From: a virus | Taxonomy: Duplodnaviria > Heunggongvirae > Uroviricota > Caudoviricetes | IMG/VR virus record: IMGVR_UViG_2667527792_000009 | Length of the DNA stretch: 5,427 nt | Reading direction: 5' to 3' (one strand) | In this document: positions 1 to 5,427 of the stretch, one piece after another | Position numbering within the stretch: the stretch's first letter is position 1 | Layout of the letters: each line of letters opens with the position of its first letter | The notes under the pieces: generated by a model | What the model saw: only the letters and a program-made list of their open reading frames with translations | What the model was told of the DNA's origin: nothing | Databases searched by the model: none | Made by a program: the position numbers and the translations under genes

Positions 1-316
1 TGAGTTTTACCGGCACTTCTTCTGCACTGGTTCCGGCATCTGCCCAGACAACCCCGACCAGCGGATCAGAGCCGCTGTTAGTCAGCTGAACTTTTCCGGA
101 CTTCAGATAAACCTTCTTACCCGTTTTCATGTCATCCGTTTTCAGCTTAGGCAGCATAAACACACCTTCGGTCATGCCGTCGCCTGTTTCACCCTGTGGA
201 ATATCGGTCAGCGCCACCGCAAAAACATCGCCCACCTGCACCAGATCTCCGCTGCTGATGGCTGCACTGGCAACAATCGCCACCGTTTTTCCTTCTTCTA
301 CAAAATTCTTTGCCAT
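1..316 (-). CDS. Small phage head-module protein, DUF2190-like (putative capsid decoration/cement protein); partial, 3' end beyond window start
   Basis: ATG at 316-314 with GGAGA Shine-Dalgarno 5-6 nt upstream; minus-strand frame stays open to position 1 (about 105 codons; absent from the ORF track because no stop falls inside the window). Hand translation: MAKNFVEEGKTVAIVASAAISSGDLVQVGDVFAVALTDIPQGETGDGMTEGVFMLPKLKTDDMKTGKKVYLKSGKVQLTNSGSDPLVGVVWADAGTSAEEVPVKL. Gly/Val/Ala-rich small protein in the position directly downstream of the capsid gene. Family assignment is from memory of the motif pattern. Confidence 0.6.
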   Translation of the reverse strand, partial: MAKNFVEEGKTVAIVASAAISSGDLVQVGDVFAVALTDIPQGETGDGMTEGVFMLPKLKTDDMKTGKKVYLKSGKVQLTNSGSDPLVGVVWADAGTSAEEVPVKL

Positions 317-359
317 AACTGTCTCCGCACAGCCCCGTTCAGGGGCTGATTTCAGGTAC

Positions 360-378
360 AAAAAAAGCCCTTACGGGC
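360..378 (-). terminator. Putative Rho-independent terminator downstream of the protease-capsid gene
   Basis: On the minus-strand transcript: GCCC-GUAA-GGGC hairpin (plus 367-378; 4 bp GC stem, 5 with a G-U closing pair, GNRA tetraloop) followed directly by U7 (plus-strand A run 360-366). It starts about 25 nt after the TAA stop at 405-403. Stem is short, so probably a partial terminator. Confidence 0.5.
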
Positions 379-402
379 CATCAGAGTTGTTGTCTGCGAC
401 GT

Positions 403-2361
403 TTACGCCGTACATTTCACCAGACCGCGGTGATCAACTGGCGCGACACCGGCGTCAATACGCACTTTCGTTGTCACGCCATCCACACTGAAGCCCTCCA
501 TCTGATCAATATATGGCGTATCCACACCGTTGAGATAAGCCACTTCAATCGTATCGGAGCCTTTTGACGCAGCCAGGTAGAAGGTGGTCTGGCTGTTATC
601 ATCAAGACGAGGCTCTGCAATAACGGTCGCAAAATCTTTCACCGGGTTAATAATACCGGCGTTAATGTCAGCCCCCTTGACACTTGAGGAGCGAATGACC
701 TGGTTAGCAACAGACTCCATCGCCGTCGGTACCAGTACGAACGCAGGACGAATATTCAGATGACGCTCCCCCTCTTTCTGAACGCGCATCAACTGGCGGG
801 CTTTATCCAGCGATGCCACGTCCATTGCAGCGCTCTCCAGTACGTTTGCATGTTTCGCTTTATCGAACAGACTTACATTATCTGTGGAGATTTTCGGGTT
901 AGACGTCAGAATGGCATAAACCAGATCGGCAATAGTGGATTTCGCCGCACGGCCCAGTTTCATCGGGACATCGGTCAGCATATTCAGATCATCATTGATA
1001 ATGGCCTGACGGGTGATACTGAACAGCTCGCCATAGGTCGCCAGTGCAATAGTGGCCTGTTTATCTCCGGTGGTGACGTATTTATATTCCGCCCCTTCAC
1101 GCACCTGACGCAGAGCACTGAAGCCCCCCATACCCACACGATGGGCAATTTTAAAATCAGACAACTGACCTTTCCGCGTCCACTGTTCATAGGTTTCAGG
1201 GGCATCTTCCCAGCCCTGCAGAATGGCTTTGTTCGCAACATCCAGCAGAATATTACCGAAGTCAGACGTACTGTGTGTGAACGCCGCACCGACCATCTGC
1301 ATCGGGTTATAACCGGAAACCCCAATACCCCGTTCAGTTAGTGACATACGGGCATATTCACGCAGGGTCATCCCGTTGTAGACATTATCACGTTCGGTTT
1401 TTTCAAATCCGGCACGCGCCATCAGCGCCTGGCGGATCCCGTCCCCCACAAAATTACCGTTACCGGCATAAATATGAGCCGGGGTATTTTTATTGGATGG
1501 CGTGGACTCGCGCCCCATCTCGTTCAACAGCTTTTCACGGGCCTGCTCCAGCGAACATTCAGGATCGGCAAGACACTGGGCCTGCAGCATCTGATAACGC
1601 CCGCCAAACATGGCAAACAGATCATTAATACCGTTTACACGCGCTTTTTGCTCTGCCAGTACCTGCGCACGGATACTGTTTTCATCCACCACGGGTGCTG
1701 CTGCCTGCACTGGCGTCCGGGAGGCTGCAGGTTCATCATCCTGTACGCGTGGAGCACTGTTGCGTGGCGGAGTAATCATGTTTCGAATGGATTCCGGCAT
1801 CTTTTTAAATTCCTCTGTACGTTTTGACTGAATACATGCCATTGCCTTAACGGCTGGTGTCACCTGATCAGCAAATCCCTGTGCCAGACATTCGGCACCG
1901 GACATCCAGGTCTCATCCGCCAGCATGGCAGCAATTTCATCGGTGGTTTTCCCGGTTTTCTGTGCATAAGCGGGTAACAGAACCGCCTCAACTTTATCGA
2001 GCAGGTCGGCATAGGTGCGCATGTCCTCCGCATCACCGCCCGTAAAGCCAAATGGTTTATGAATCATCATGAAGGAGTTTTCCGGCATAATGATCGGGTT
2101 TCCCACCATCGCAATGACCGACGCCATTGACGCCGCCACACCGTCGACATAAACGGTAATGGACGCACCATGTGTTTTCAGTGCATTAAAAATGGCGATG
2201 CCTTCAAAGACATCGCCACCCGGTGAATTAATATGGAGATTAATGTGGGTGATATCGCCCAGTGCATTCAGATCACTGATAAACTGCTTCGCTGTAACAC
2301 CCCAGAAACCAATCTCGTCATAAATATAAATATCCGCGTCACTCTGGTGACCTGCCTGCAT
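403..2361 (-). CDS. Prohead protease (ClpP/S14-like) - scaffold-like linker - major capsid protein, encoded as one fused polypeptide (652 aa)
   Basis: Continuous ORF from ATG 2361-2359 to TAA 405-403. The 739-aa track ORF extends further upstream only because the frame stays open across the portal 3' end; 2361 is the first ATG after the portal stop. N-terminal ~180 aa carries ClpP-type motifs (INSPGGDV, GVAASMASV, MMIHKP, ADETWMSGAE) with a candidate Ser-His-Asp triad at codons 2130-2128, 2061-2059 and 1917-1915, spaced as in ClpP. Middle ~140 aa is an Ala/Gln/Glu-rich helical segment. C-terminal ~330 aa has the size and position of an HK97-fold major capsid protein; that part is inferred from context, not verified by motif. 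Confidence 0.8.
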   Translation of the reverse strand: MQAGHQSDADIYIYDEIGFWGVTAKQFISDLNALGDITHINLHINSPGGDVFEGIAIFNALKTHGASITVYVDGVAASMASVIAMVGNPIIMPENSFMMIHKPFGFTGGDAEDMRTYADLLDKVEAVLLPAYAQKTGKTTDEIAAMLADETWMSGAECLAQGFADQVTPAVKAMACIQSKRTEEFKKMPESIRNMITPPRNSAPRVQDDEPAASRTPVQAAAPVVDENSIRAQVLAEQKARVNGINDLFAMFGGRYQMLQAQCLADPECSLEQAREKLLNEMGRESTPSNKNTPAHIYAGNGNFVGDGIRQALMARAGFEKTERDNVYNGMTLREYARMSLTERGIGVSGYNPMQMVGAAFTHSTSDFGNILLDVANKAILQGWEDAPETYEQWTRKGQLSDFKIAHRVGMGGFSALRQVREGAEYKYVTTGDKQATIALATYGELFSITRQAIINDDLNMLTDVPMKLGRAAKSTIADLVYAILTSNPKISTDNVSLFDKAKHANVLESAAMDVASLDKARQLMRVQKEGERHLNIRPAFVLVPTAMESVANQVIRSSSVKGADINAGIINPVKDFATVIAEPRLDDNSQTTFYLAASKGSDTIEVAYLNGVDTPYIDQMEGFSVDGVTTKVRIDAGVAPVDHRGLVKCTA

Positions 2362-2374
2362 CCTGAACCAGGAA

Positions 2375-3718
2375 TTATTCTTCGGACTGGTCGTCGGTGT
2401 GCTGCGGCTCCTGTCGTTTCGTTGCGGCACTGCTGCCTCCTTTATCACTGGCCGGATCGGTATCAAATACCAGATCCAGCTTGCGGTTTTCATCAATTTC
2501 GGCCTTGCGCCGACGTTTGACATCATCCGGATTACGACCACCTGCACGTACCCAGTCTGATTCTGTCGCCGCTCCACCACGAATCTGAATTTTCCAGGCC
2601 TCAGCCTCCTTAACAGGGTCAATCCACGGCATCACCGGTCCGGAATACACCGCGGTATACAGTGAAGATCGGTCCAGATCGCGGGGTAGCCTGATAACAC
2701 CGGATGCCACAGCCTGTTTCAGCCAGGCACGGTACATCGGGCGGGTGACGGCACCAATAAACCAGTCCTGCAGGATCAGGTAGCCATCAGTAGATTCAAC
2801 CAGCTCCTGACGCTGGGCGCTGTAAGTGCCGTTATAGTTGCGCGCTGTACTGGAAAAACTCAGACGACTGCCCGCAGCCACGGCACGCAACTGACCATTA
2901 CGAAAAGTTTCAAGGTTAGGATTGGGGCGATCCGACTTCACCATTCCGATTTCTTCGCCGGGTTTCAGATCGTCGTAAATAATGCCTGGCTGAATGGTAA
3001 GCTCGCGTTCATTCTCCTTGCTGTCATTACCATCCGTTTCATAGCTCTGTCCGTCGCCTTTCCGGATGTACATCCCCAGAGCAGCGGCGATCCTTGCTGC
3101 AGTCAGCTCAGAATCTTCATACTCTTTCAGAGCACTGAGGCGGATCAGCACACCGGACAACAAAGACGTCCCGCGCATCTGGTGCAGACGGCGAACAAAT
3201 TTAAGATGCAGCATTCGCTCTGCATCCACTTCTTTGGTTTCCATCTGCCGCCCGGATACGGGACGGCTTTTATACACCAGATATTTTTCGGGACGCCCCC
3301 AGTCATCAACAAACACGCCCTGATTCAGCCTGTTGCTCTCATCACTGGTCATGGGAATAAAGTCCGGCTCGAGCGCCTCCAGCCAGAAATGAACACCGGC
3401 AGAAGGCGTCAAGCTGTTTATGCGCCCGGAAACCATCTGGGCAAACACCTCACCATCGCGCAGCCAGGTACGCAGCATCAGACGTTCCAGCATCGGACGG
3501 GTAAACTGCCCGGTGACCTCCGGACTGACAGACCATTCACTCCATCGGGTGCGAATCTCCGCTGCCAGATCACGGGCAATGGCCCCATTGCGTAATACCG
3601 GATGTGGCTCGACAATAATCCCGTTTTTCCCCACCACCCGTTCTTCCAGCTTGTCAAATACACCAATGACCAGATCGTGGTTGTTATCAAGGTAACGGGC
3701 CTGCTCACGTAACGACAC
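2375..3718 (-). CDS. Portal protein, lambda gpB family (main body; N-terminal 51 codons separated by an in-frame TAG)
   Basis: 447-codon track ORF running from GTG 3718-3716 to TAA 2377-2375. Large protein with acidic C-terminus (..HTDDQSEE) located between the gpW-like gene and the prohead protease, as in lambda W-B-C order. The same frame continues upstream to ATG 3883 but is interrupted by TAG at 3730-3728. Confidence 0.8.
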   Translation of the reverse strand: MSLREQARYLDNNHDLVIGVFDKLEERVVGKNGIIVEPHPVLRNGAIARDLAAEIRTRWSEWSVSPEVTGQFTRPMLERLMLRTWLRDGEVFAQMVSGRINSLTPSAGVHFWLEALEPDFIPMTSDESNRLNQGVFVDDWGRPEKYLVYKSRPVSGRQMETKEVDAERMLHLKFVRRLHQMRGTSLLSGVLIRLSALKEYEDSELTAARIAAALGMYIRKGDGQSYETDGNDSKENERELTIQPGIIYDDLKPGEEIGMVKSDRPNPNLETFRNGQLRAVAAGSRLSFSSTARNYNGTYSAQRQELVESTDGYLILQDWFIGAVTRPMYRAWLKQAVASGVIRLPRDLDRSSLYTAVYSGPVMPWIDPVKEAEAWKIQIRGGAATESDWVRAGGRNPDDVKRRRKAEIDENRKLDLVFDTDPASDKGGSSAATKRQEPQHTDDQSEE

Positions 3719-3727
3719 GGCCCCGTA

Positions 3728-3883
3728 CTAGCTTAACTGGTCGGCAGTTCGGCTCTCCCGTCGGGCTTTATGTGTCCGCGTCGTTTTTACGGCCTCATAA
3801 GCCTGGATCACCGCACGGGAACGCAGCCTTGCCGCTTTCCATCTTGGTGAAAAAACGCCAATCACATCATCAAGAATTGCCAT
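3728..3883 (-). pseudogene. Portal N-terminal segment (51 codons) cut off from the portal body by an in-frame amber codon
   Basis: ATG 3883-3881 overlaps the gpW-like stop (TGATG) and has a GAGG Shine-Dalgarno about 5 nt upstream. Hand translation [51 protein letters not shown], then TAG 3730-3728, then YGA and the GTG at 3718, all in the portal frame. Confidence 0.55.
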
Positions 3884-4095
3884 CAGAACCTCGCCAGCCG
3901 GTACCCGGGATGCCCCCGTCGTCGTGTAATCAGAGCCGCAAGGCGGCGCTCCCACTCCTGCCGCCCCTGCCGGATCTCAGATAAGTTTTCCATGGTCATC
4001 TGCTGACCATTAAAAGTGACGGATTTTCCGTCCAGCACCGCCATTTCAGCTTCCGTATAACGCTGAATCATGGCTTCAATATCATTCTGATTCAT
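3883..4095 (-). CDS. Head-tail joining / head completion protein, lambda gpW-like (70 aa)
   Basis: Small ORF sitting exactly between terminase large subunit and portal, as W does in lambda. Start assigned to ATG 4095-4093 (GGAGG about 6 nt upstream) rather than the track ATG at 4101-4099, which has no spacer after the same GGAGG. The start overlaps the terminase stop as ATGA; the stop overlaps the portal start. Sequence [32 protein letters not shown]...RRRG is of gpW size with an RRRG-containing C-terminus like lambda W (from memory). Confidence 0.7.
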
Positions 4096-5075
4096 AACCA
4101 TCCTCCGGAAGTCAGCCAGGGGTTAACATCGTCAGTTACTGTTTTCTTCCGTTTTTGTTTTTTAACAGGCGTGGGTACCGGTTCCGGTGAGGGTGACGGT
4201 TCGGTACTGTCCGGGACACACTCCAGCCAGGTTTCCCGGCTCGCCCACTCCGGTGCATCCGGCCAGCGGATCTTTTCGTATCCATGCAGAATGACCAGAG
4301 CCTCGGCATACACCATCAGGTCAAAAGCTTCGTTGGCACCGCGACCCGGCTTACTCCATTTCCCGTCACTGCTCCGCTCTTCATACGTCAGTTCGTCGTA
4401 AAACCAGCTCCCCAGCCAGTCAGGGAAATGCACATAGCCTGGACCTGGCGAGTCACGCCATAACGCGTTATTCACCCGGTCTTTCAGGGCATCCGTCTGA
4501 AGAAGCCAGAGCGGCACATCACCTGCGGCCTGCGCCCGGCGGCCCGTTCGTCCGGTGTTATCAGGGAATGTACGGCTGATCAGTTTTGCGCGCCGGATGC
4601 TGTCGCCCTTAAACAGGTAAATACGTTTACCAAGGCCATCACGACGGCAACGACGCCAGAATTTATAGGCATTATCAGTGACCCCGTCTTCACCGCCGGA
4701 GTCCACCGCCATTGCCATCAGTCGCATTTGTTGAGAAGGATCGGAGGCCAGCGGCCAGCTTTTATGAAAAACATCCGTCAGCAGGACATCCCAGTCTTCC
4801 GGATAGCTGGCCGGATCAATTCGCTGGCTCTCCCCGTCGCAGTCACTGCGCAATGACTGCGTGATGTTGTAACGATCAATAATCCAGCGTTCGCCACGGC
4901 TGCCATAGCCCGTTACCTGAACCACAAAACGGCGATGACGTCCCGCCTGCACATCCACTGTCGCCACAAGGAAATTAACGCCATCCGGAACACTGCGGGA
5001 AGGAACTGGCTCTGCCCGCTGCTCAAGCAGTTCACTTTTTCGTTGCTCCATGCTGGCACGAGGAAGATAAGGCAA
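4092..5075 (-). pseudogene. Terminase large subunit (lambda gpA family), C-terminal nuclease-domain fragment; N-terminal ATPase domain absent
   Basis: Minus-strand frame ending at TGA 4094-4092. The translation from about codon 109 of the 435-aa track ORF (..[33 protein letters not shown].., ..[20 protein letters not shown].., ..[13 protein letters not shown].., ..[10 protein letters not shown].., ..[14 protein letters not shown]..) matches the conserved C-terminal pattern of gpA-type terminases as I remember it. Upstream of about 5075-5080 the same frame is only the antisense of the adhE/LuxR fragments. The only in-frame ATG nearby (5051-5049) has no Shine-Dalgarno, and no Walker-A ATPase region is present. 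Confidence 0.65.
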
Positions 5076-5077
5076 AC

Positions 5078-5285
5078 AGTCTAACGCACTGATGCACCAC
5101 CCAGACATCAACCTGATCCTCGCGACTGGTGGTCCGGGCATGGTTAAAGCCGCATACAGCTCCGGTAAACCAGCTATCGGTGTAGGCGCGGGCAACACTC
5201 CAGTTGTTATCGATGAAACTGCTGATATCAAACGGGCAGTTGCATCTGTACTGATGTCCAAAACCTTCGACAACGGCGTAATCTG
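5078..5285 (+). pseudogene. adhE: Internal fragment of aldehyde-alcohol dehydrogenase gene adhE (about residues 195-245), ending just before the catalytic-cysteine codon
   Basis: Plus-strand translation [68 protein letters not shown] matches, from memory, the E. coli AdhE aldehyde-dehydrogenase domain. Native AdhE continues ..DNGVICASEQS; here the codon after GVI is TGG (W) and the sequence diverges. The three codons 5' of SNAL (G-K-Q) do not match AdhE (expected V-E-L), and TAA lies in frame at 5068-5070. No Shine-Dalgarno before ATG 5092. Confidence 0.7.
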
Positions 5286-5427
5286 GTTAGCGGCGGGCGA
5301 ATCAAATAAGGAGATCGGCAGAGCGCTGAATATCAGTACCGGAACGGTAAAAGCGCATCTGGAATCCCTGTATCGCCGTCTGGAAGTGAAAAATCGCATC
5401 CATGCCAGCGGTCTGGCAAGCCTTTGA
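5286..5427 (+). pseudogene. C-terminal fragment of a LuxR/GerE-type helix-turn-helix regulator, fused in frame to the adhE fragment
   Basis: Translation ..[43 protein letters not shown] then TGA 5425-5427 fits the second half of the LuxR/GerE HTH consensus (G.SNKEIA..L.IS..TVK.H...I..KL.V.NR..A). The first part of the domain (LT.RE.EVL..) and any receiver or ligand domain are missing. I could not assign it to a specific known regulator. Confidence 0.5.

Follow-up and report, generated by a model that had tools for sequence, protein, structure and literature searches.

The patchwork of gene fragments that closes the window (the whole stretch of DNA analyzed here, 5,427 nt), where the terminase gene of a lambdoid prophage gives way to an internal piece of adhE and this in turn runs in frame into a LuxR-type HTH, probably came about as a chimera during assembly or scaffolding of a low-quality draft, with no counterpart in the real genome; we put the probability of this reading at roughly 0.85. 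It is favored by the mosaic structure of the contig that holds the window, by the ambiguous bases (N's) lying on the seams of that contig, and by junctions that are unique to one draft assembly. The original prediction had offered either a scar of repeated recombination or deletion, or an assembly or cloning chimera; of these our analysis favors the assembly chimera, while a scar formed in vivo is unsupported. If an assembly chimera and a physical chimera of the library are taken together, the patchwork is very likely to be one or the other, and the joins were, we infer, made by software (or by a consensus over reads that do not span them) and not in a cell.

Mosaic structure of the source contig

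The window corresponds to positions 1354-6780 of CDRT01000199.1, a contig of 16,115 bp in the draft E. coli assembly GCA_001373215.1. BLAST resolves this contig into eight segments, separated by seven seams and originating from unlinked E. coli loci (Table 1). Each segment matches ordinary E. coli at an identity of 99.5-100%. All seven breakpoints fall within unique genes or unique sequence, none of them at a repeat, and the contig is chimeric over its whole length, with its pieces packed most densely in the 350 bp that had been flagged at the end of the window.

Table 1. Coordinates of features in the window and of the segments that make up contig CDRT01000199.1.
Feature	Coordinates	Strand	Length	Basis or remark
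Lambdoid head module	window 1-5075	-		DUF2190, ClpP-protease/major-capsid fusion, lambda-family portal, DUF6148, terminase 3' part
Terminase large subunit, 3' part, gpA endonuclease domain only	window 4092-5075	-		Pfam GpA_nuclease 3.1e-69
Accidental extension of terminase frame through antisense adhE and yhjB	window 4092-5399	-		open to window end
Seam 1, overlay zone	window 5075-5078		4 nt	deposited A-N-C-N; window A-A-C-A
Internal adhE fragment	window 5079-5285	+	207 nt	megablast and base-by-base alignment to K-12
Chimeric ORF	window 5092-5427	+	111 codons	ORF list; crosses adhE, yhjB and antisense rnt
yhjB fragment, codons 152-190 of 200	window 5286-5398	+	113 nt	megablast; 100% to O157 yhjB
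Start of rnt segment, antisense	window 5399-5427	-		100% match to internal rnt
lysS, internal (116 nt or more)	contig 1-116			BLAST
motB-motA, internal	contig 116-1106		991 nt	BLAST
Prophage	contig about 1120-6428		about 5300 nt	BLAST
adhE	contig 6432-6638		207 nt	
yhjB	contig 6639-6751		113 nt	
rnt..ydhI	contig 6752-14986		about 8230 nt	
gcd, internal	contig 14985-16080		about 1095 nt	
yiaV	contig end, last 24 nt		24 nt (24-35 nt)	BLAST

The joins within the window are confined to this one draft assembly, which again favors an assembly chimera. None of 5,426 complete E. coli genomes matched window positions 4900-5427 at a coverage of at least 80%, the junction region was not found in phage or plasmid collections, and searches for the exact junction strings returned nothing from viral, species-representative genome and metagenome collections. 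A literature search on the accession had as its sole return an unrelated Pectobacterium paper, probably through a substring match.

The limits of the window follow from gene calls on the contig. The call of the upstream neighbor ends at contig position 1353, one base before the window starts, and a 95-aa call at contig 6493-6780 (window 5140-5427) ends where the window ends. Because windows are cut at gene-call boundaries, the last codon of the window is a stop; the exact coincidence between the window end and a stop codon had been read correctly in the original prediction, but it carries no meaning. An artefact of a contig end is ruled out, as CDRT01000199.1 runs for 9.3 kb beyond the window.

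Several seams lie outside the window. The lysS / motB-motA seam is found upstream of it, at contig position 116. At the motA / prophage seam (contig 1107-1122) nine N's are interleaved with called bases, and a spurious gene call of 204 aa (739-1353) extends across it. Similarly, the seam between the ydhI/slyA-upstream region and gcd has one N, at contig 14984, and is crossed by a spurious 433-aa gene call (14795-16096), and the gcd / yiaV seam has N's at contig 16081-16091.

Sources of the sequence in the window

The prophage portion of the window is identical over all 5075 nt (100%) to a prophage of E. coli 101EVA (NZ_CP138393.1). In a base-by-base alignment this match breaks off at position 5075, with divergence from 5076, bearing out the expectation that terminase sequence would reach to about 5075. 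The 101EVA copy is located at the Qin site and represents a common lambdoid prophage of that site in E. coli, present at a coverage of at least 80% in 1,808 of the 5,426 complete genomes. In those 1,808 genomes the prophage is intact across the point at which the terminase gene breaks in the window, and the gene has its full length of 2100 nt (annotated as 699 aa in 101EVA), while the window terminase is without the 5' ATPase part.

For the piece that follows, a derivation from adhE had been proposed for positions 5078-5285, and megablast of positions 5075-5285 agrees, with a match to adhE at 99.1% identity (E=7e-102) in all 5,426 complete E. coli genomes. Together with the overlay zone, the piece spans nt 527-737 of the coding sequence (codons 176-246), or 70 of the 891 codons of this bifunctional acetaldehyde-CoA/alcohol dehydrogenase, and its last base is the second of the Cys246 codon. 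The earlier statement that adhE stops one codon before the catalytic cysteine was thus essentially right, the exact end lying within the cysteine codon itself. The best identity of 99.1% reflects two differences, at positions 5235 and 5078. The G at 5235 changes CGT to CGG (Arg), is synonymous, and is absent from the best-ranked matches among the 5,426 genomes; it is either a private SNP in the adhE of this strain or a low-depth sequencing error, and the verdict on the patchwork is unaffected by the choice. A mutation close to the junction is ruled out for the mismatch at 5078, since this position is an N in the deposited record.

The parental gene of the LuxR-family piece, which had been left to be found, was identified by megablast as yhjB. 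The start of this piece at 5286 and its in-frame join to adhE were placed correctly, but it ends at 5398, 29 nt earlier than the end of the window to which it had been extended. It holds most of the GerE/LuxR HTH, without the first helix and the last 10 codons of the gene. The last 29 nt as a divergent allele of yhjB are ruled out, because they match antisense rnt at 100%; the count of three unrelated origins accordingly missed a fourth, at 5399-5427. On the contig this segment continues beyond the window as rnt(nt 1-521)-gloA-nemA-nemR-ydhL-ydhF-sodC-ydhK-ydhJ-ydhI, and its 8235 nt are 100% identical to strain GE3, an ordinary E. coli chromosome. The matches to adhE, yhjB and rnt go far beyond what chance would give. 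That adhE and yhjB meet in frame is unremarkable, as two pieces have about a 1-in-6 chance of sharing strand and frame.

Ambiguous bases at the seams

Window positions 5076 and 5078 (contig 6429 and 6431), both A in the window, are N in the deposited record. This replacement of N by A hid the clearest clue of a bad join and made the false 'mismatch' at 5078. At both positions the two sources disagree (prophage T and C, adhE A and T), and the called bases of the overlay zone are those on which they agree.

The same signature is found along the contig, whose 18 N's all fall at four of the seven seams (contig 1107-1122, 6429/6431, 14984 and 16081-16091). Tallied over the three N-marked seams for which both source loci are known, with the sources overlaid by 3-16 nt, the overlaid sequences disagree at 12 of 12 N's and agree at 10 of the 11 called bases of those zones. 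A single recombinant molecule has one sequence only at each position. The pattern of N's indicates that both native sequences run 3-16 nt into the seam, and this is something that one recombinant DNA molecule cannot do. It agrees with two independent pieces forced into overlap by software, and a consensus over reads that do not span the seam would give the same picture.

At the three N-free seams the pieces meet with next to nothing in common: they simply abut at adhE / yhjB and at yhjB / rnt, and one G is common to lysS and motB-motA. True microhomology amounts to 0-1 nt at the prophage / adhE, adhE / yhjB and yhjB / rnt seams, so that the microhomology that had been suggested as a thing to look for at the first two of these junctions comes to a single nucleotide at most. 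On reading the seam sequences by eye, no common restriction site was visible at the seams, which speaks against junctions at restriction sites, of a cloning or 3C type.

Origin of the joins

An assembly or scaffolding chimera would account for these observations as follows. Independent pieces of one E. coli genome would have been placed end to end in the contig; where two pieces overlapped by a few bases, a consensus would have been written, with a base if they agreed and an N if they did not, and pieces without overlap, such as those at adhE / yhjB and yhjB / rnt, would simply abut. This concatenation would give rise to the 'adhE-LuxR' ORF and would also explain why terminase and rnt look 'truncated'. 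In the joining of unlinked loci, in its assembly-specific junctions, in its ambiguity codes and in its spurious truncated or fused gene calls, the contig is like the misjoined contigs of other draft bacterial assemblies. It is unlike typical de Bruijn misjoins, which occur at shared repeats, in that the joins lie inside unique genes with 0-1 nt shared. Segments that end in unique sequence also count against an assembly chimera, such ends being unusual for normal de Bruijn contigs unless coverage is very low. The small amount of shared sequence and the location in unique genes therefore suggest that pieces were overlaid or concatenated by force, or that coverage was very low, rather than a misjoin induced by a repeat. 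Two further observations stand against an assembly chimera: adhE / yhjB and yhjB / rnt are free of N's, as a physical ligation product would be, and N's at a real junction could come from reads of intact source loci that entered the consensus.

The first of these observations bears on an in vitro chimera, in which short sheared E. coli fragments would have been ligated during library or clone construction and the product then faithfully assembled. The clean abutments at adhE / yhjB and yhjB / rnt and the 0-1 nt of shared sequence are as expected from such a ligation, as are the small size of the pieces (207 and 113 nt), their unlinked origins, and the private substitution at 5235, which low-depth sequence might carry. 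However, the native sources extend 3-16 nt into four seams, which a single ligated molecule does not predict, and the seven seams, with segments of up to 8.2 kb, would require a long insert that is multiply chimeric. The lack of an evident common restriction site at the seams (by eye) argues in the same direction. We consider an in vitro chimera improbable for the patchwork; ligation in the library could account for the two seams that flank yhjB and lack N's.

Very unlikely, and more so than ligation in vitro, is an event in the cell, in which a double-strand break in the terminase gene would have been repaired by end joining or template switching, with adhE and yhjB as filler, and joined to rnt. 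Such repair is available to E. coli, for which LigA-dependent alternative end-joining (A-EJ) that produces large deletions and joins at micro-homologies is described by Chayot et al. (2010), as cited in PMC4872102; moreover, the pieces are flanked by sequence on both sides in the contig and match one general E. coli background. The described use of micro-homologies (PMC4872102) is itself at odds with seams that share 0-1 nt, and microhomology-mediated template switching and A-EJ were rejected on this ground.

The orientation of the rnt segment is difficult to reconcile with a deletion. To the right of the prophage, the 101EVA chromosome continues with rspB, ynfA ... pntAB, rstA, in ascending K-12 order, while the rnt segment of the contig (rnt, gloA, nemA) is in descending order and is inverted relative to that flank. 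A simple deletion from terminase to rnt is therefore impossible if the prophage of the source strain sits at the same site as in 101EVA, and a simple prophage-rnt deletion with filler DNA was ruled out by this orientation together with the other seams in the contig. Those other seams, lysS / motBA / prophage on one side and ydhI / gcd / yiaV on the other, are unrelated to the terminase gene, so that invoking a special event at the terminase would leave them unexplained. Similarly, the presence of N's on the seams and the absence of the junctions from every other genome searched argue against repair in vivo. The patchwork is superficially like the filler-DNA junctions of A-EJ, in which the broken end of a gene is connected to a remote locus through short inserts of other origin, but it differs from them in its 0-1 nt of shared sequence, in an orientation that is wrong for a deletion, in its N-coded overlays and in five further unrelated seams.

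Fainter again is the prospect that the joins are physically real in a broader sense, as a complex chromosomal rearrangement that linked many unlinked segments, short and long, by near-blunt end joining, with the N's a side-effect on the consensus of source copies that remained intact. The adhE (207 nt) and yhjB (113 nt) fragments would then have been captured between the broken terminase gene and an inverted rnt. Should the joins be real, near-blunt end joining of so many fragments would be unusual for E. coli.

An assembly chimera thus remains the preferred reading of the patchwork, and it has a bearing on data hygiene. A chimeric public contig of this kind yields ORFs that are falsely fused, and a terminase and an rnt that are falsely truncated. 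Such false proteins enter databases as singleton clusters, where they may pass for the results of prophage decay or gene capture, or for new domain architectures.

The chimeric reading frame

The 111-codon ORF over the patchwork is an accidental reading frame on concatenated pieces, and its in-frame join and its stop are accidental as well, the TGA being the reverse complement of a Ser codon of rnt. As had been stated, the frame is present and has no obvious Shine-Dalgarno sequence upstream of position 5092; moreover, no sigma-70-like promoter was found in window positions 4800-5427. The only recorded form of the protein is the 95-aa version (window 5140-5427), which is a singleton cluster from one contig among about 15 billion proteins. 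Neither the 111-aa ORF nor the 435-aa ORF of the antisense-extended terminase had an exact match among recorded proteins.

The domains of the ORF are incomplete. The Pfam GerE match (3.3e-14) covers only profile positions 13-53 of 57, without 1-12 and 54-57, and the Pfam Aldedh match, at 18.4 bits against a cut-off of 23, covers profile positions 202-266 of 461. The ORF fails as a LuxR/GerE transcription factor because its HTH is incomplete and is preceded by a fragment of AdhE, and because antisense rnt supplies the last 9 residues. In YhjB, a response-regulator-like E. coli protein of the LuxR/GerE family (200 aa), window positions 5286-5398 are identical to codons 152-190, so that relative to this protein the ORF has 39 of 200 codons and is without the receiver-like N-terminal part, the first HTH helix and the native C-terminus. 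It likewise fails as an aldehyde dehydrogenase, as the Aldedh domain is partial, scores under the threshold, and stops within the Cys246 codon.

These features agree with the earlier view that the ORF is not functional, as do its singleton status and its near-identity to the source genes. That it encodes a functional small LuxR-type regulator, or a prophage 'moron' that arose by gene fusion, has next to no probability: the uninterrupted frame of 111 codons with its significant GerE match speaks for such a fusion, but both domains are deficient, the last residues are antisense rnt, neither a Shine-Dalgarno sequence nor a promoter accompanies it, no homologue shares its architecture, and an identity of 99.5-100% to the source genes gives no sign of independent evolution.

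Terminase, portal and capsid genes of the prophage

The minus-strand frame of the terminase meets no stop in antisense adhE, yhjB and rnt and remains open up to position 5427, where the window ends. With the frame open through these foreign pieces, gene callers append unrelated residues to the 'terminase', and the call for the extended terminase gene on the source contig is 338 aa long (window 4092-5108, minus strand).

A C-terminal form of the terminase with an internal start (window 4092-5051, 319 aa) is recorded as a 'hypothetical protein' on five contigs, one of them of 4.85 Mb. The cluster of this form at 90% identity has 1,675 members, and most of the 15 listed are partial terminase calls at contig ends. 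Draft assemblies often contain fragments of the terminase of this prophage.

The portal gene has an in-frame amber codon at Gln52 (CAG to TAG; window 3728-3730, minus strand). Strain 101EVA has the same amber, and its annotation lists the portal gene as a pseudogene interrupted by a stop; the free-living phage HannyBb has CAG. Without suppression of this codon, the portal gene would consequently be defective in the widespread variant of the Qin-site prophage that is 100% identical to the prophage portion of the window.

The ClpP-like prohead protease and the major capsid protein form a single gene of 675 aa (window 403-2430, minus strand), the start of which overlaps the end of the portal gene (2375-3883, minus strand) by 56 nt. 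Both the fused protease-capsid gene and this overlap are also annotated in 101EVA.
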